From positions 1,973,533 through 2,005,532 of the forward strand of contig NC_001263.1 of assembly GCF_000008565.1 (NCBI RefSeq): 32,000 nt of DNA. The letters are read 5' to 3'. The notes beneath the pieces were generated by a model. The model was not told the DNA's origin, did no database searches, and was given only the letters and a program-made list of their open reading frames with translations. This DNA is from Deinococcus radiodurans R1 = ATCC 13939 = DSM 20539 (lineage in GTDB: Bacteria; Deinococcota; Deinococci; Deinococcales; Deinococcaceae). Both the position numbers and the translations under genes were made by a program. Of the stretch, positions 1,762-13,025 are shown piece after piece (within the stretch, counting starts at the first letter, position 1; each line of letters starts with the position of its first letter).

Positions 1762-3324
1762 TTATTTCTGCACTGTCACCAAGTTGAGCGAGCCCACCGT
1801 ACTCAGCGGCCCGGTAATCCAGCCCTTGACGTAGGTGCGGGCGGCGGCGGGGGCGGTGCTGTGGACCAGCGGCAGCCGCACGTTGGCGTTGTAGGTCAGT
1901 TCGTGAAGCTGCTTGTAGTAAGGGGCTTTCTGGGCCTGGGTCAATGCGGCGCGGCCCTTGTTCAGCGTGTTCAGGATGTTGCCGGGGTTGAAGCCGATGT
2001 CGTCGCTGCCCTTGTCGCCGTAGAAGGCACTGTAGAAGTTGTCGGGGTCGTTGTAGTCGCCACCCCAGCCGTAGAGGTACATCTGAAAGACCCCGGCGCG
2101 GCGGTCTTCGAGGTACTTGGGCCAGTCCTCGGTCTTCAGGTTGACCTTGATGCCGATGGCGCCCAGGTCGGCGGCAATCGCTTCGGCCACCGGCTTGGGG
2201 GTGGGGAGGTAGTTGCGGCTGATCGACGGATACCACAGGTCGATGCTGAAGCCGTTCGGGTAGCCGGCTTCGGTCAGCAGCCGTTTGGCGACCTGGGCAT
2301 TGACCTTGACGGGCGGCACGTTCTTGCTGTTGGCCCAGGCCATGCTCGGCGGCAACATGCTGTTGTCCACGCTGCCCAGTTCACCCCAGAAGGCGTCCAC
2401 GATGGCGGGGCGGTTGACAGCGAAACGGATGGCCTCGCGCACCTTGGCGTTTTTCAGCGCGGGGTGCCGCACGTTCATGTTCAGCAGGCCCACATTGAAG
2501 GAGGTCGGCAGCACCAGGGTCAGGCGCTTGTCGGCCTTGATTTGGGCCGTCGCTTCGGGGTTGAGGTTGCTGGTGAAGTCCACCGTTCCGGCGCGGACTT
2601 CGTTGAGGCGCTGCGCCGGGTCTTTGATGAAGCGGAAGACGAGGCGGTCCAGGGTACTCCTGGTGCCCCAGTAGTTGGGGTTGGGGCGGAAGTTGAGGCG
2701 GTCACCGGCCTTCCAACTTTCCAGGATGAACGCACCCGTGCCCACCGCACTGCCCGCTGGCGTGCCGTATCTGGTGCCCTGTTTCTTGACGGCGGTCGGG
2801 CTGGCGATACCGAAATAGTAGCTGCCGATGAGTGCCGGAAACGCGGTCACGGGCTTGTTAAGCGTGAACACCACGGTGTCGCCCGACTTGCTCACCGAAC
2901 GCAGCAAACTGCCCGCCTCGCCCTTGTTGCCGCCGAGGAGTTGCGGCCAGACATCGAAGGTCGCGCCGTAGCGGTAGGCATTCTTCTTGTCCCACCAGCG
3001 GCTTACGTTAAAAATCACGGCGTCGGCGTTGAAGGGCGTGCCGTCGTGAAACTTGACGCCCTTACGCAGCGTGAAGGTCCAGACCGTCGCCGCCGCGTTG
3101 CTTTTCCAGCTCGTCGCCAGCGCGGGAACGAGTTCCGCCGTACCGGGCTTGAAATCAATCAGACGGTCATAAATCTGCGCGTCACCCTGCAAGCTGGGGC
3201 TGTCGCCGCCGTTGCCCGCGTTGAGGTTGACCGGTTCGCCGGGAGCGCCGTAGACAAGCGTGCCCGCAGCCCCCGCCTGAGAAAGCAGCGTCAATGTGAG
3301 CAACGTCAAAAAACCTTTTTGCAT
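1762..3324 (-). CDS. ABC transporter substrate-binding protein, family 5 (peptide/nickel/opine type), with signal peptide
   Basis: 520 aa. N-terminal signal MQKGFLTLLTLTLLSQAGAAG. Typical SBP_bac_5 segments are present (WTFTLRKGVKFHDGTPFNADAV, NPNYWG). AAGGAG lies 6 nt upstream of the ATG. No permease or ATPase genes are adjacent. Confidence 0.9.
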   Translation of the reverse strand: MQKGFLTLLTLTLLSQAGAAGTLVYGAPGEPVNLNAGNGGDSPSLQGDAQIYDRLIDFKPGTAELVPALATSWKSNAAATVWTFTLRKGVKFHDGTPFNADAVIFNVSRWWDKKNAYRYGATFDVWPQLLGGNKGEAGSLLRSVSKSGDTVVFTLNKPVTAFPALIGSYYFGIASPTAVKKQGTRYGTPAGSAVGTGAFILESWKAGDRLNFRPNPNYWGTRSTLDRLVFRFIKDPAQRLNEVRAGTVDFTSNLNPEATAQIKADKRLTLVLPTSFNVGLLNMNVRHPALKNAKVREAIRFAVNRPAIVDAFWGELGSVDNSMLPPSMAWANSKNVPPVKVNAQVAKRLLTEAGYPNGFSIDLWYPSISRNYLPTPKPVAEAIAADLGAIGIKVNLKTEDWPKYLEDRRAGVFQMYLYGWGGDYNDPDNFYSAFYGDKGSDDIGFNPGNILNTLNKGRAALTQAQKAPYYKQLHELTYNANVRLPLVHSTAPAAARTYVKGWITGPLSTVGSLNLVTVQK

Positions 3325-3374
3325 CTGAAACTCCTTACGCGGGGGAGATGCCGAACAGACCCCTGCATGATGGT

Positions 3375-3389
3375 TGATAAATTTTATCA
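3375..3389. promoter_or_regulatory. perfect 7-1-7 inverted repeat TGATAAA-T-TTTATCA (Fur-family box-like)
   Basis: Read directly from the sequence. It lies in the divergent region 51 nt upstream of the SBP start and 82 nt upstream of the 3471 gene. It differs from the Bacillus-type Fur 7-1-7 consensus TGATAAT-N-ATTATCA only at the innermost position of each arm. Confidence 0.45.
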
Positions 3390-3470
3390 GCTTTGAGAAA
3401 GAGCTCTAGAGTTTTCAGCCTGTTCCCGGCGCAGTGTCACGGCTACCCAGAGGGGTGACAAGCTGAGGGC

Positions 3471-4133
3471 ATGAAGTCCTGGATGCTGCGGGCGCCCGCT
3501 GACGTTCTCTCCCCTGCTGACGAGGCGGCTTGCCGGGCGGCGTTGAGGGGGAGAACGGCGGCGCAGGTACCCGCCACACTGCCGAAATGGGTCTTTTTGC
3601 GCTGGCTGACGGAACAGGGTTTTTTGCTGCATGGGTCGCCTGTTGGCGAACTCACGGAACTGCGCCCGGCAGAGAAGGCTTACCGGCAGCCCGACGAGTT
3701 CAGCAACACCATCGGCGTTTACGCCGCATCGGACGGCATTTGGGCCATGATGTACGCCCTCCGCAATCCGCAGACCACTCAGATGAGCGATATGGGCCTG
3801 CGCCTCCAGAAAAATGGGCAGTGGGGCGAAATGTGCTATTTCATGTCTCTGGCGCCGAGGCAAGGGCAAGTCAACAGGGTGGAAGAGTTGCTCGTGAGTG
3901 GCACGGTCTACGTCCTGAGCAGGGAGGGATTTCAAAATTCATCGCCTTACCACAATCCTGGCCTCGGCGAAGTTCAGGAAAGTCATTGGGTTTGCCCCAC
4001 TCCCGTCCGGCCCCTTTTCGCCGTGCCCGTGCAGGCCGCCGATTTTCCCCTGCCCGTGCGCCTGCATGACCGGGAGACGGTGGACGCCCGCTGTCAAGCG
4101 GACCCGTGGGGCTTTCCCTGGCTGGACCCTTAG
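3471..4133 (+). CDS. hypothetical protein; candidate divergent H-Y-E type ADP-ribosyltransferase (see findings)
   Basis: 220-aa ORF with balanced composition (W, Y, F, M, N, Q present), unlike the overlapping R/P/A-rich ORFs. TGaCAAGCT extended -10-like element ends 6 nt before the ATG. Motifs LLHGSP, GVYAASDGIWAMMYA and QESHWVC are present. Confidence 0.6.
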   Translation: MKSWMLRAPADVLSPADEAACRAALRGRTAAQVPATLPKWVFLRWLTEQGFLLHGSPVGELTELRPAEKAYRQPDEFSNTIGVYAASDGIWAMMYALRNPQTTQMSDMGLRLQKNGQWGEMCYFMSLAPRQGQVNRVEELLVSGTVYVLSREGFQNSSPYHNPGLGEVQESHWVCPTPVRPLFAVPVQAADFPLPVRLHDRETVDARCQADPWGFPWLDP

Positions 4134-4151
4134 AACACTTGCCAGAAAATG

Positions 4152-4206
4152 CCCCCCTCACCCCTGCCTTTGGCAGGCCCTCTCCCACTAGGGTAGAGGG
4201 TCGAAA
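4152..4206 (-). repeat. small non-coding intergenic repeat, copy 1 (double hairpin)
   Basis: The reverse complement TTTCGACCCTCTACCCTAGTGGGAGAGGGCCTGCCAAAGGCAGGGGTGAGGGGGG aligns over 55 nt with 7569-7623. Confidence 0.8.
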
Positions 4207-4240
4207 GGCGAAACATTCCCAGGCCGCGCTACCCTGCGGC

Positions 4241-4687
4241 ATGACCGCAGAGGCGACAGCTCCCGGCCCCAGGGCGCGGGCGTATCACGAGTACCTGGCC
4301 GCAGAGGGCTACCGCCCGCAGTTCGACGGCGACGGCGACGTGGAATTCAAGGCCGAAGGGTTTTACCTGTGCTGCTTTGCCAACGAGGACGACCCGCAGT
4401 ACCTCTACCTCGCCGCGCCCAATGTCTGGGCGCTGGAAGACGCCGGGGAGCGCACGCAGGCGCTCGACATCGCCATGCACCTGCAAATGCTTTACAAGGG
4501 CCTGAAAGTAGTCGTGCTGAGCGACACGGTGTGGATGAGCTACCAGGGCTTTCTGGAAGACGAAGCCGCCTTTCGCGGCGTGTTGGGCCGGGTCATCGAC
4601 CTGCTGCTCACGGGGGTGCGCGACTTTCACCGCCGGATGCGTGAGGAAACGCTTCCTGCCGAGGAACACAGCGGAGTGCAGGCGTGA
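4241..4687 (+). CDS. YbjN-like (type III secretion chaperone-like fold) domain protein
   Basis: Start moved to ATG 4241 (TACCCT hexamer ends 5 nt upstream). The upstream part of the ORF-track frame lies inside an intergenic repeat. YLAAEGYRPQFDGDGDVEFKAEGFYLCCFANEDDPQYLYLAAPNVW resembles YbjN-family proteins from memory. The stop overlaps the next start (GTGA). Confidence 0.55.
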   Translation: MTAEATAPGPRARAYHEYLAAEGYRPQFDGDGDVEFKAEGFYLCCFANEDDPQYLYLAAPNVWALEDAGERTQALDIAMHLQMLYKGLKVVVLSDTVWMSYQGFLEDEAAFRGVLGRVIDLLLTGVRDFHRRMREETLPAEEHSGVQA

Positions 4688-5685
4688 GCGCCGCGCCCGC
4701 CCCGGCCCTCATCGCCCTGCTGTCCCTGAGCGCCGCCGACGCGTTGGGGGCCGCCACCGAATTCAAGACGCCCGAGGCGATTCGCGCCCGCTACGGCGAG
4801 AGCATTTCGACCTATCAGCCCGGCAGCGTCTTCGGGTTCGCGCCCGGCGAGGCCACCGACGACAGCCAGATGGTGGCGGCGACCCTGCTCGGCTACCGAA
4901 AGGGCGACGGGCTACCGGGCGTTCTCGCGGGCCTGCGCGACTGGCTGTCCACCGCGCCGCCCGACGTGGGGGGGCTGACCCGCGCCGCGCTGCGCCTGGG
5001 CACCCTCGACGGCGGCGTGCGCGCCTGGGAACACAGCCGCTTCCAGAGCGCGGGCAACGGCGGCCTGATGAGAATCGCGGCGGTGTGGCTGCGCGGCTTT
5101 CAGGGCGAGGAATTGAACCGCGAAAGCGCCCTCGTGACCGCGCTGACCCACGCCGACCCGCGCTGCGTGTTCGCGTCGGTGTTTTTTACGGCGCTGCTGG
5201 GGCGGCTGGCGGCGGGTCAACCCTTCCAGGCCGCCGCTGAGGAGAGTCTGCAAGTGATGGACGCCTCCGACGCCCGCTCCGTGCTGCTTGATGCTGGATT
5301 GTTCGGCGTGGACACCCGCGCGGCTTTTGGCGCCTTCAAGGCCACCGAGCGTCAGGCCCGCGCCGACGTGCGCCGGGCAGCCCGCGCGGGCCTGAGCGGG
5401 CAGGTGAGGTCGCAGAGCGGCTACGTGCTGGACACCTTGCAGGCGGCGCTGGCACACGCACAGGCGGGCACCTGGCTGGGGTGCGTGGAGCCCGCTGTGC
5501 TGCTCGGCGACGATTCCGACACGGTGGCCTGCGTGGTCGGCGCGCTTTGCGGGGCACGGGGGCTGACCTCCCCCGAACTGGAGGTGCCGGAGCATCTGCT
5601 GCCGGAGCTGCGGCTGGGCCACTCCTGGCCGGGGTGGCAGCGGGATTGGGCCTGCACCGAGCATTTCCCCGAACTGCTGGCATGA
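4684..5685 (+). CDS. ADP-ribosylglycohydrolase family protein (DraG/ARH-like)
   Basis: 333 aa with the family hallmark motifs: SAADALGAATEF near the N-terminus, GEATDDSQM, and C-terminal GDDSDTVACVVGALCGA. GTG start overlaps the upstream stop and its own stop overlaps the next ATG. Confidence 0.85.
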   Translation: MSAAPAPALIALLSLSAADALGAATEFKTPEAIRARYGESISTYQPGSVFGFAPGEATDDSQMVAATLLGYRKGDGLPGVLAGLRDWLSTAPPDVGGLTRAALRLGTLDGGVRAWEHSRFQSAGNGGLMRIAAVWLRGFQGEELNRESALVTALTHADPRCVFASVFFTALLGRLAAGQPFQAAAEESLQVMDASDARSVLLDAGLFGVDTRAAFGAFKATERQARADVRRAARAGLSGQVRSQSGYVLDTLQAALAHAQAGTWLGCVEPAVLLGDDSDTVACVVGALCGARGLTSPELEVPEHLLPELRLGHSWPGWQRDWACTEHFPELLA

Positions 5686-6239
5686 CCGAAGAGGAGTTTC
5701 TGGCGCTGGTGCGGCACAACCCGGTCAACGCGGCCCTGCTGGACCGGCTGCCGCAACTCGCTGCCTTTGCGCCGGGAGCCCTGCTGGTGGCAGGCTCACT
5801 GTTCGGCACCGTCTGGAACGTGCAAAGTAGCAACGACCCGGCGGCGCACATCAAGGACTACGACCTCTTCTACTGGGACGCCGACCTCAGCTACGAGGCC
5901 GAGGACGCCGTGATTCGGCGGGCGGCGCTGCTTTTCGCCGACCTCAGTGCCCCCATCGAGCTTCGCAACCAGGCCCGCGTGCACCTGTGGTTCAATCCCA
6001 AGCACGGCCTGAACCGCCCGCCCATCCGGAGCGTGCAGGAAGGCATAGACCAGTTTCTCATCGAGTGCACCTGCCTGGGCATCGACGCGCAGGGGAATGT
6101 TTACGCGCCCTACGGCCTGGACGACATGGCGGCGGGCCTGCTGAAACGCAACGCCCTGAACCACTCGCCGGGGCTGTACGCCGCCAAAGCGGAGAGCTAC
6201 CGCGCCCGCTGGCCCTGGCTGCGAGATGTGCCTGTGTGA
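5682..6239 (+). CDS. nucleotidyltransferase family protein (Pol-beta-fold NTase, NTP_transf_6/DUF925-like)
   Basis: Start at ATG 5682 (ATGA overlap with the ARH stop). AGSLFGTVWN...IKDYDLFYWD fits the hG[GS]-x(9-13)-DhD NTase signature. The longer ORF-track N-terminus is R/A/G-rich and overlaps the ARH gene. Confidence 0.7.
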   Translation: MTEEEFLALVRHNPVNAALLDRLPQLAAFAPGALLVAGSLFGTVWNVQSSNDPAAHIKDYDLFYWDADLSYEAEDAVIRRAALLFADLSAPIELRNQARVHLWFNPKHGLNRPPIRSVQEGIDQFLIECTCLGIDAQGNVYAPYGLDDMAAGLLKRNALNHSPGLYAAKAESYRARWPWLRDVPV

Positions 6240-6301
6240 TGCAGCGGCGTGATACCGGGCAAGTGTCGCCCGGTGAACAGCGAAATGGAGGACGGCCCCG
6301 T

Positions 6302-6307
6302 TAAACT
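6302..6307 (+). promoter_or_regulatory. -10 hexamer TAAACT, 6 nt before the thiolase ATG (leaderless-type)
   Basis: TAnnnT hexamer. No Shine-Dalgarno lies between it and the ATG. Confidence 0.4.
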
Positions 6308-6313
6308 CTAGGT

Positions 6314-7513
6314 ATGTCTGAAAAAATTGTCATCGTGGCGGCCAAGCGCACGCCCATCGGCAGCTTCATGGGAAGCCTGAAAGACGTGTCGGCGGTCGAC
6401 CTCGGCGTCACGGCGGCGGGCGCAGTCCTGAGCGGCGTGAGCGACGAAGTGAAGGCCGACATTGCCGACGTCATCGTGGGCTGCGTGCTCCAGGCGGGCC
6501 AGGGCATGAACGTGGCGCGGCAGGTGGGGCGCGGCGCCGGGCTGCCCGACGCGGTGCCGGGACAGACCATCAACCGCATGTGCGGCAGTGGTTTGCAGTC
6601 GGTGGTGAGCGCCATTCAGGGCCTCAAGTCCGGCGACGGCCAGATTTACCTCGCGGGCGGCACCGAGTCCATGAGCCGCGCGCCCTACCTGCTCCCCAAG
6701 GCCCGTGAAGGCTACCGGCTGGGGCACGGCGAGATTCTCGACACCATCCTGACCGACGGCCTGACCGACGTGTTCCACAACTACCACATGGGCACGACCG
6801 CCGAGAACCTCGCCGAGAAATACGGCATTTCCCGTGAGGACCAGGACGCCTTCGCGCTCGAATCACAAAAGCGCGCCGCCGCCGCCATCGAAGGCGGATA
6901 CTTCGGCGACGAAGTGGTGCCGGTGGAAGTCCCGACCCGCAAGGGCCCGGTGACCTTCGACAAGGACGAGCACCCCCGCGCCACGTCGCTCGAAGCGCTC
7001 GCCAAGCTGCGGCCCGCCTTCAAGAAGGACGGCGGCACCGTCACGGCAGGCAACGCCAGCGGCATCAACGACGGCGCGGCGATGGTGCTCGTCACCACCG
7101 AGAGCTACGCGCAGGAACGCGGGCTGCCTATCCTGGCCGAGGTGAAGGGCTACTCGAACGTGGGCGTGGACCCGGCCATCATGGGTATCGGCCCGGCCTA
7201 CGCGGTGCCGCTGGCGGTCAAGCGGGCGGGGCTGTCGATGAGCGACGTGGACCTCTTCGAACTCAACGAAGCCTTCGCCGCGCAGAGCCTCGCCGTGCTG
7301 CGCGACCTGGGGCAGCAGGGGGCCGAGGTGGACCCCGCCCACGTCAACCTGACCGGCGGCGCGATTGCGCTGGGCCACCCCATCGGCGCGTCGGGTGCCC
7401 GCGTGCTGACCACGCTGATTCACCAGTTGCGCCGCACCGGCAAGGAAACCGGCGTGGCGAGCCTGTGCATCGGCGGCGGCATGGGGATTGCGCTGGTGTT
7501 GCAGGCCCGCTGA
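6314..7513 (+). CDS. acetyl-CoA C-acetyltransferase (thiolase II)
   Basis: 399 aa. Active-site Cys context [10 protein letters not shown]-terminal [17 protein letters not shown] and CIGGGMGIA motifs. TAAACT hexamer ends 6 nt before the ATG. Confidence 0.95.
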
Positions 7514-7568
7514 CACCGACCCGCTTACACCGGGGGCGTAGAGCATTTGACATAAGAGTGCTTGGCGT

Positions 7569-7623
7569 TTTTGACCCTCTACCCTTGTGGGAGAGGGCCT
7601 TGCGCAGCAAGGGGTGAGGGGGT
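7569..7623 (+). repeat. small non-coding intergenic repeat, copy 2
   Basis: TTTTGACCCTCTACCCTTGTGGGAGAGGGCCTTGCGCAGCAAGGGGTGAGGGGGT. Hairpin 1 is CCCTCTACCC/GGGAGAGGG and hairpin 2 is CCTTGC-GCA-GCAAGG. Confidence 0.8.
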
Positions 7624-7636
7624 CTTTAAACAGGTA

Positions 7637-7675
7637 AGGGCGGAGGGGAACAGAATCCTCTCCGCCCTTCCTTTT
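7637..7675 (+). terminator. intrinsic terminator after the thiolase gene
   Basis: 9-bp stem AGGGCGGAG/CTCCGCCCT (7637-7645 / 7660-7668) followed by TCCTTTT. Confidence 0.7.
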
Positions 7676-7683
7676 GCCGCTGC

Positions 7684-7697
7684 ACCCTCTACCCTGT
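7684..7697 (+). repeat. solo left-arm fragment of the same repeat, immediately upstream of the ankyrin gene
   Basis: ACCCTCTACCCTGT compared with ACCCTCTACCCTTGT in copy 2. Confidence 0.45.
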
Positions 7698-7701
7698 CCC
7701 C

Positions 7702-8384
7702 ATGTCCGACGCCGTGACCACCCTTTTCACCGCCATTCACGCCAACAACCCCGAGGGCGTGCGCCTGCTGGTGCGGGCCGAGCCGGAACTCTTGCAAGCG
7801 CGCAGCCCGAGCGGCCTGTCGCCGGTCATGTTCGCGGCGTACTACCAGCGGCCTTACGTGCTCGACGTGCTGCTGGCGGCGGGCCCGGAACTGGACGTGT
7901 TCGAGGCGGCGGCGACGGGCCAGCCCCTACCGGAAGGAGCGGACGTGAACGCCTTCAACCCCGACGGCTTCACGCCCCTACACCTCGCCGCCATGTTCGG
8001 GCGCACGGAGGCGGCGCGGGCGCTGCTCGGCGGCGGGGCGGACCTGCACGCGCTGAGCCGCAACCCGCAGCGGCCTCTCCCCTGCACTCGGCGCTCGGCG
8101 GGCGACAGTGGGAGACGGCGCGGCTGCTGCTGGAGCAGGGCGCCGACTCGCACGCCGCGCAACCCGGCGGCTGGACCCCGCTGCTGCTGGCGGTGCGCGA
8201 GGGCGCGGCAGACCTGGTGGCCGAGTTGCTGACGCGGGGCGCCGACCCCCACGCCCGCACCAACGACGGCGAGAGCGCGGCGGACCTCGCGCGGGACAAC
8301 GAGCACGAGGGGCTGCTGCGGCAGTTCCCGGTGCTGGCCCAGGCGGGCACCGAGAGCCAGGACGCCCCACCTCGCCCAAACTGA
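7702..8384 (+). pseudogene. ankyrin-repeat protein interrupted by a single frameshift near 8068-8076 (or a sequencing error)
   Basis: The frame from 7702 reads ankyrin repeats up to GGGADLHALSRNPQ and then becomes R/C/W-rich. The neighbouring frame continues seamlessly with ASPLHSALGGRQWETARLLLEQGADSHAAQPGGWTPLLLAVREGAADLVAELLTRGADPHARTNDGESAADLA and stops at 8384. One missing base around cag-cgg-cc restores a 227-aa protein. Confidence 0.7.
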
Positions 8385-9036: not shown

Positions 9037-10299
<1,263 letters not shown>

Positions 10300-10361
10300 G
10301 GGTCAGCTTTCCTTTTTGCTTTTGCTCTCTGGAATCGGCTTCTCTGGACGCGGCAGGCGCC

Positions 10362-13025
<2,664 letters not shown>

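Follow-up and report, generated by a model that had tools for sequence, protein, structure and literature searches.

A Deinococcus operon that joins a DraG-like ADP-ribosylglycohydrolase to a PF06042 nucleotidyltransferase, as seen in D. radiodurans R1

We analysed a stretch of 32,000 nucleotides (nt) of Deinococcus radiodurans R1 (NC_001263.1, positions 1,973,533 to 2,005,532 of the forward strand), referred to below as the window and numbered from its first letter. Four genes lie on its + strand within positions 3471-6239: the gene of an uncharacterised protein called here up220, a YbjN-like gene, an ADP-ribosylglycohydrolase (ARH) gene and a nucleotidyltransferase (NTase) gene. A first-pass annotation, made from the sequence alone, had singled out the last three as a chained trio. 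By gene order in related genomes, this trio is the form taken in D. radiodurans by a chromosomal operon that is found only in Deinococcus and has as its core the ARH followed by the NTase.

A genome scan with the NTase gave 19 loci; those of D. aetherius, D. wulumuqiensis and D. fonticola came from further, targeted look-ups. The ARH and the NTase were found together in 17 Deinococcus loci and were directly adjacent in 16 of the 17. The junction between them was -4 nt in 10 of the 16 adjacent pairs and ranged from -14 to +67 nt in the rest. In D. fonticola (L122 4496-5833), a 445-aa gene of the SUKH-1/SMI1/KNR4 type (SUKH-1, E 6e-29) stood between the two and shared 4 nt with the start of the NTase; the same locus in D. 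antarcticus (L006) had no SUKH gene. The flanks of the pair fell into at least five unrelated contexts, namely PadR/thiolase, DUF4385/polyphosphate kinase (PPK), DUF4388 or pyrH-frr-cdsA/ychF, redoxin-like/SDR, and tdk. With flanks that differ to this extent, the ARH-NTase pair has therefore survived many rearrangements.

The link is specific to the genus, since none of 83 NTase loci from outside Deinococcus (80 metagenome loci, with NTases 44-59% identical, and three genome loci) carried an ARH gene within 3 kb. Up220 and YbjN-like genes were likewise absent within that distance in these loci, all three genes having been looked for by tblastn and profile hidden Markov models (HMMs). Pairing with an ARH as a general feature of PF06042, the family of the NTase, was thus ruled out. 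No neighbour of the NTase was recurrent outside Deinococcus, the commonest neighbour cluster being present in 6 of the 85 loci clustered. Plasmid copies of the NTase adjoined unrelated genes: an MFS transporter gene, IS elements with a GNAT gene, a biosynthetic cluster, and a peroxiredoxin gene. Inside the genus, the NTase stood alone in three loci (L013-L015).

The gene at the head of the pair varied. It was up220 in seven of the 17 loci, in at least four flanking contexts. We observed a tight three-gene unit up220-ARH-NTase in D. wulumuqiensis, D. aetherius, D. phoenicis and D. antarcticus; in D. fonticola up220 was directly 5' of the ARH, followed by the SUKH gene and then the NTase, and in D. 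xinjiangensis up220 was 5' of ARH-NTase with an antisense ORF inserted between. The up220-ARH junction was a 4-nt gap in L012 and L023, a 4-nt overlap in L109 (D. wulumuqiensis) and L122, and an overlap or near-contact in L006, while an insert split the two genes in L007 and in the D. radiodurans window.

The YbjN-like gene, on the other hand, was followed by the ARH in just 3 of the 17 loci, those of D. radiodurans and of two close relatives (L004, L005). A fourth contig (L112) carried it right after up220, with a 5-nt gap and PadR on the other side of up220, and ended before the expected position of the ARH. The family is tiny, with seven homologues among 5.8 billion clusters. A 62%-identical homologue was found directly 5' of a NO synthase gene (L113-L115), a 46%-identical one overlapped ispF-SpoU methylase by 4 nt (L001-L003), and a 37%-identical one lay amid unannotated genes. 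The small gene thus recurs as the first gene of unrelated operons. With homologues so few and so placed, the trio of YbjN-like gene, ARH and NTase was rejected as a conserved unit. A 149-aa gene 5' of up220 in D. aetherius was considered as a hidden YbjN homologue and also rejected; it is redoxin-like. The YbjN-like gene is outside the conserved unit and, judged by its distribution, probably a recent, lineage-specific insertion. Of the four-gene module proposed in the first-pass annotation, the recurring part is up220-ARH-NTase, and the YbjN-like gene drops out.

A single syntenic site, with PadR on one side and thiolase-ankyrin on the other, shows the exchange of the first gene. The gene preceding ARH-NTase at this site was up220 in D. 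wulumuqiensis, with 4-nt overlaps on both sides, the YbjN-like gene in L004 and L005, and up220, a repeat element and the YbjN-like gene in D. radiodurans. The simplest history would have an ancestral operon up220-ARH-NTase, into which the YbjN-like gene (with the repeat, in D. radiodurans) was inserted later; some lineages, including the L004/L005 relatives, would have subsequently lost up220 or had it separated. D. fonticola instead seems to have gained the SUKH/SMI1 gene between ARH and NTase.

The ARH matched PF03747 over residues 11-292 (E 8e-44, 150.8 bits with a cut-off of 26.2). Its closest solved structure was DraG (6e-14), followed by Lmo0067 and Tri1, and its scores were below the cut-offs of the equivalog models of both DraG (TIGR02662, 70.6 vs 337 bits) and Tri1 (NF041672, 55.8 vs 490 bits). 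Residues D19 (in DALG) and E26, T58-D59-D60, D94 and D276-D277-S-D279-T280 aligned to DraG, with D94 equivalent to D97 of DraG, and the catalytic residues were invariant across 11 Deinococcus orthologues. The metal-site motifs, which had been read from the sequence as all kept, are therefore not degenerate on alignment. The likeness to DraT/DraG extends to gene order, as a candidate writer gene is located directly 5' of the ARH in many species. It stops at up220, which is unrelated in sequence to DraT, and at two additions in Deinococcus, the NTase and a Trp-rich C-terminal tail of the ARH. To our knowledge, Deinococcus has no nitrogenase, another difference from the DraT/DraG setting. All 11 Deinococcus orthologues compared had the tail (residues 309-329) unchanged, and DraG lacks it; it might serve as a motif for binding a partner. 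The tail motif LRLGHxWPGWxRxW..H.P is encoded at 5608-5685 (residues 309-333).

The NTase matched PF06042 (E 3e-35, 121.7 bits with a cut-off of 25) and, among solved structures, the uncharacterised protein of PDB entry 2LA3 (2.7e-9). Residues G38, D59, D61 and E93, which make up the hG[GS], DxD and third-carboxylate signature, were invariant, and the Pol-beta signature noted earlier stands with one amendment: the serine of its 'G-S' is variable (S, A, C or V). Since the catalytic residues are invariant in the ARH and the NTase, both enzymes look active. PF06042 was classed as NTase group XX, uncharacterised and probably active, and listed beside DUF1814 (Kuchta 2009). A literature search on the function of PF06042/DUF925/COG3575 found nothing later than that classification. 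The protein resembles the minimal Pol-beta NTases (MNT, MenT/AbiEii DUF1814, ANT/Lnu) in being a single-domain NTase with G-[GS], DxD and a third acidic residue; unlike them, it belongs to a different family and has no HEPN or antitoxin partner. Some NTase genes of the genus were interrupted. For example, in two D. wulumuqiensis assemblies (L109 8038-8187; L110) a low-GC insertion of ~150 bp, which holds two 24-nt direct repeats 54 nt apart, splits the NTase into two ORFs. In D. murrayi (L019 5477-7414) a redoxin-like gene is followed directly by the ARH with no up220, unlike in D. aetherius; the NTase there breaks off after residue 126, so that the ARH-NTase locus seems to be decaying in this species.

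For the YbjN-like protein the sequence match was below threshold (TY-Chap1, PF22551: E 1.2e-3, 19 bits, under the cut-off of 27). Its AlphaFold2 model (pLDDT 89.5) has the topology a-b-b-b-a-b-b-a, and the top 47 PDB matches of the model in Foldseek were all type III secretion system (T3SS) chaperones, YbjN or DR_1245 (probability 0.97-1.0, TM up to 0.72). The YbjN/T3SS class I chaperone fold is thus confirmed at the level of the predicted structure. All three domain and fold assignments of the first-pass annotation are correct, because of the profile matches to PF03747 and PF06042 and the YbjN-fold matches. Compared with DR_1245, E. coli YbjN and the class I chaperones CesT, SycE and VecA, the protein has the same fold (Foldseek probability 1.0, TM 0.55-0.72) and is likewise small and acidic, but the identity is only 7-16% and its own family has just those few clusters. 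DR_1245 of D. radiodurans, a YbjN-type protein, binds a partner (DdrB). We know of no T3SS in Deinococcus.

Up220 had no match in Pfam, NCBIfam or PHROGs, and a profile search against PDB sequences returned nothing. Among the 289 representatives of its family, the motifs LLHGS, AVYAxxDGIWA and G-x-VY-xLPR are conserved. Its AlphaFold2 model (pLDDT 95.7) had as best PDB match in Foldseek the rifampin ADP-ribosyltransferase Arr, a weak match (E 0.049, probability 0.63, TM 0.25/0.38), with two further Arr entries and PARP1 lower in the list. Against a viral structure library, uncharacterised proteins came first, followed by non-significant matches to PolyVal-ART and PARP. The up220 motifs are collinear with those of Arr-2, whose sequence we verified against PDB 9IBA: H-G-[ST], then ~30 residues on [IV]-Y-[FA]-[SA], 8-10 residues on W, and then G-x-[IV]-[YF]-[IV]-[VL]. 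Residues H54-G-S and Y83 are present for a putative NAD+ site. Compared with Arr (PDB 2HW2, 9IAF, 9IBA), up220 has ~70 additional residues, a beta-hairpin insert and a helical part at its N-terminus, and the equivalent of Arr D84 is not conserved. The earlier suggestion that the gene at 3471 is ADP-ribosyltransferase (ART)-like agrees with the best fold match and not with the profile searches; on the model it is suggestive only, a reasonable lead with roughly even odds and not a result.

Several other features of the up220 family were observed. The naming of homologues in two database records pointed to a RES domain, which we rejected, as it had no Pfam support. Some members are fused to HEAT repeats or to DUF3471. 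In a 3256-aa protein (P0225), the first 55 residues of up220 find a match at 21 separate places, and this helical segment may be a repeat unit elsewhere. In D. koreensis (L111 1442-5675), up220 is located 17 nt after a TetR gene and the gene of an 882-aa PEP-utilising enzyme of the rifampin-phosphotransferase family, a neighbourhood that draws attention because the best fold match of up220 is Arr.

The two junctions of the trio were read directly from the sequence. GTG at 4684-4686 overlaps TGA at 4685-4687, and ATG at 5682-5684 overlaps TGA at 5683-5685, so the chaining by GTGA and ATGA described in the first-pass annotation is as it was given. GTG 4684 is the sole start codon available upstream of the DALG motif of the ARH. 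ATG 5682 is the start common to all NTase homologues, whose alignments begin at residue 1, and ATG 4241 is common to all YbjN-like homologues; a longer ORF from GTG 4106 runs through the repeat element. Older gene models, with a 150-aa NTase and a 193-aa first ORF spanning the repeat, mask the overlaps. In one D. radiodurans assembly the ARH and up220 are each called as two fragments, due to either strain frameshifts or assembly errors.

The overlaps had also been taken to imply fixed stoichiometry. In the gene tables of the other Deinococcus loci, 4-nt overlaps were present at ~8 of 26 (~30%) co-directional junctions of neighbour genes, the genes under study being left out of the count. As such overlaps are generic, they tell of operon membership and not of stoichiometry: those of the trio indicate one operon and possibly translational coupling, and overlapping stop and start codons in these genomes are no evidence of a stoichiometric complex. 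Scans for promoters, terminators and Rfam families over 3200-7800 were uninformative. The coordinates are collected in Table 1.

Table 1. Features of the locus, in positions of the window
Feature	Positions	Strand	Basis
up220, 220 aa, uncharacterised family, possible Arr/PARP-like ADP-ribosyltransferase	3471..4133	+	family search, AlphaFold2 fold
small non-coding repeat, two hairpins, between up220 and the YbjN-like gene	4148..4206	.	inverted-repeat match
YbjN / T3SS class I chaperone-fold protein (predicted), 148 aa	4241..4687	+	AlphaFold2 fold
GTGA junction: YbjN-like stop / ARH start	4684..4687	+	sequence read; identical 4-nt overlap in L004, L005
DraG-like ADP-ribosylglycohydrolase (ARH), 333 aa	4684..5685	+	PF03747
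ATGA junction: ARH stop / NTase start	5682..5685	+	sequence read
NTP_transf_6 Pol-beta-fold nucleotidyltransferase, 185 aa	5682..6239	+	PF06042 (formerly DUF925, NTase group XX)

As for function, the reading that we prefer, with a probability of about 40%, is a cytoplasmic module of reversible ADP-ribosylation or NMPylation that is specific to the genus and picks up genes of protein-binding adaptors. In the mechanism that we infer, up220, as a possible Arr/PARP-like ADP-ribosyltransferase, would attach ADP-ribose to a target, and the ARH, like DraG, would take it off again, probably from arginine. A second switching layer would come from the NTase, through transfer of a nucleotide to this target or to a partner. 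The interchangeable small proteins (the TY-chaperone, i.e. the YbjN-like protein, and SUKH) would be adaptors or inhibitors that hold the target or one of the enzymes, and the 4-nt overlaps would give co-transcription and coupled translation of a single operon.

Several observations weigh against this reading. The assignment of up220 as an ART is weak: besides the low Foldseek scores (E 0.049, TM 0.25-0.38), there was no family HMM match, hhalign of the up220 family against Arr was not significant (probability 0.8%), and no conserved catalytic acid was identified among the family motifs. Five loci, those of D. peraridilitoris, D. koreensis, D. metalli, a 17.6-kb plasmid of Deinococcus and a contig from outside the genus, had up220 with no ARH-NTase near it, so that its link to ARH-NTase is recurrent but facultative. 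Eight ARH-NTase loci had neither up220 nor the YbjN-like gene adjoining. The NTase was damaged in 4 of the 17 loci (by a stop, a frameshift, a truncation and a 150-bp insertion) and is therefore dispensable in some lineages; its role in the scheme is pure inference.

A more specific form of the preferred reading is a three-enzyme cycle, in which up220, as a new Arr/PARP-like transferase family, would write, the DraG-like ARH would erase, and the NTase would add a second nucleotide mark or re-use the released ADP-ribose, with TY-chaperone and SUKH plug-ins retargeting the cycle by species. We regard the full cycle as unlikely, though a serious candidate; if true, PF06042 and the up220 family would each receive their first function.

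The genes may also have no functional link at all and be unrelated genes that genome compaction packed in one transcript and the genus inherited vertically. The high background of 4-nt overlaps, the absence of a conserved NTase partner outside Deinococcus, the exchange of the first gene and the decay of the NTase in some lineages all fit this explanation. Conversely, the adjacency of ARH and NTase has outlasted at least five changes of flanking context, the order up220-ARH-NTase recurs in four contexts, and two different protein-binding adaptor genes were inserted within the operon and not beside it. On balance we find mere packing rather unlikely.

Another possibility is suggested by the ARG-centric neighbourhoods (ARG being the ARH), described in section 3.8 of a study by Iyer, Burroughs, Anantharaman and Aravind (2022, Viruses 14:1977, PMC9503650) as sets of genes in which an ARG is joined by Nudix/WYL regulators, by phosphatases and by chaperones that bind peptides, TY-Chap1 of the YbjN/T3SS superfamily among them. 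According to that section, these systems are proposed to reverse ADP-ribosylation by viral enzymes, have a Nudix- or WYL-HTH regulator in 42% and a coupled phosphatase in 55% of cases, and are defined by an ARG with no genomically coupled ART or sirtuin. Applied to our locus, the ARH would strip ADP-ribose placed on host proteins by ARTs of phages or competitors, the TY-chaperone would hold the modified proteins, and the NTase would be a new accessory. The TY-Chap1-type chaperones, as that section presents them, were defined from ARG neighbourhoods, and the locus has an ARH coupled to a small protein for which the YbjN fold is confirmed here. The gain and loss of adaptor genes (YbjN-like, D. 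fonticola SUKH) between close relatives, both being lineage-specific, fit the hallmark of a chaperone with accreted modules that the section gives.

Other traits differ. Neither the ORFs at 1-10 kb of the window nor the related loci contained a Nudix or WYL-HTH regulator or a phosphatase, the only regulator being the divergent PadR. The chaperone is under the Pfam cut-off for TY-Chap1 and is present in only 3 of the 17 loci, with homologues beside NO synthase and ispF. Up220, a possible ART, is linked to the ARH in 7 of the 17 loci, which, if up220 is indeed an ART, would be the opposite of the defining criterion as worded in section 3.8, and the partner that stays constant here, a PF06042 NTase, goes unmentioned in that section. 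The operon is confined to one genus amid housekeeping genes, and PADLOC returned nothing for the trio and, for up220, one match to a Cas3 model at chance level (E 0.008, 13.6 bits). We therefore consider a counter-ADP-ribosylation role quite unlikely. The YbjN-like/ARH pairing nevertheless has a published precedent in the TY-chaperone and ARG neighbourhoods of that section, and to this extent the earlier view that the combination is undescribed does not hold. It does hold for an ARH with PF06042, of which our literature search found no description. The up220-ARH-NTase unit is apparently undescribed, a variant of known ADP-ribosylation writer/eraser and ARG-chaperone neighbourhoods.

A cluster for the modification of small molecules (antibiotics or xenobiotics), with up220 as an Arr-like drug ART, an ANT/Lnu-like NTase and the divergent PadR as regulator, is improbable. 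It would agree with Arr as the best fold match of up220, with the D. koreensis TetR and rifampin-phosphotransferase-family genes, with PadR being divergent from up220 in several species, and with two plasmid homologues of the NTase, one overlapping an MFS transporter gene on a conjugative Sphingobium plasmid and one near a GNAT gene on a Ti plasmid. These supporting links are all single cases, however; it is not obvious what a DraG-like ARH would do in the inactivation of drugs, the TY-chaperone and SUKH adaptors point to protein partners, and the NTase neighbours outside Deinococcus have no consistent theme.

Pairs of ART toxins and ARH immunity proteins do exist (Tre1-Tri1), and NTase-fold toxins are known. 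Still, a toxin-antitoxin or immunity module, with up220 or the NTase as toxin (cf. MenT/AbiEii), the ARH as antidote and the YbjN-like protein in the role of the chaperone of tripartite TAC systems, is very improbable here despite the weak similarity of the ARH to Tri1 and the SUKH immunity-type protein inserted in D. fonticola, because each component occurs alone elsewhere (up220 in five loci, the NTase in three loci of Deinococcus and 83 outside the genus), the flanking genes are of the housekeeping kind, with no mobile or defence-island context, PADLOC gave no credible match, and scans of viral contigs found no homologues of up220 or the NTase; the toxin-immunity aspect of the first-pass annotation thus finds no support.

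The reading as a reversible-modification module, tentative as it is, bears on two families. PF06042, formerly DUF925, has been without a function since its classing in 2009, and the up220 family (~290 representative clusters) has no annotation. The stable link to an intact DraG-like hydrolase gives both a testable context, the chemistry of ADP-ribose or NAD+. D. radiodurans is genetically tractable and has known stress biology related to ADP-ribose and to YbjN-type proteins (DR_1245). It can also be seen from the locus that one operon has taken in adaptor genes with two distinct folds.

The repeat that separates up220 from the YbjN-like gene, correctly noted before, recurs in inverted form at 7569-7627, behind the thiolase gene (59 nt, 83% complementary). 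The two inverted copies, each of ~60 nt with a double hairpin, flank the block from the YbjN-like gene through the thiolase gene. The repeat alignment has a mean column identity of 78% and a fold of -38.4 kcal/mol (z -1.8). A search of the repeat against Rfam gave no match; in form it is like the small non-coding repeats (SNRs) known from D. radiodurans. It is not present at the up220/YbjN-like junction of L112.

On the other side of up220, the window has the genes of a PadR regulator and a 377-aa HAAS-type membrane protein (126-1645, - strand). Several Deinococcus species (L004, L109, L112, L123) have this pair in divergent orientation to up220 or to the YbjN-like gene; in D. radiodurans, the gene of a peptide-binding ABC substrate-binding protein (1762-3324, - strand) intervenes between the pair and up220. 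Farther downstream, two tandem paralogues of a PilT-like ATPase are located on the - strand (9037-10299 and ~10300-11500) and make up the direct repeat families D1-D4 of the window, with ~70% identity and a spacing of ~1200 nt.

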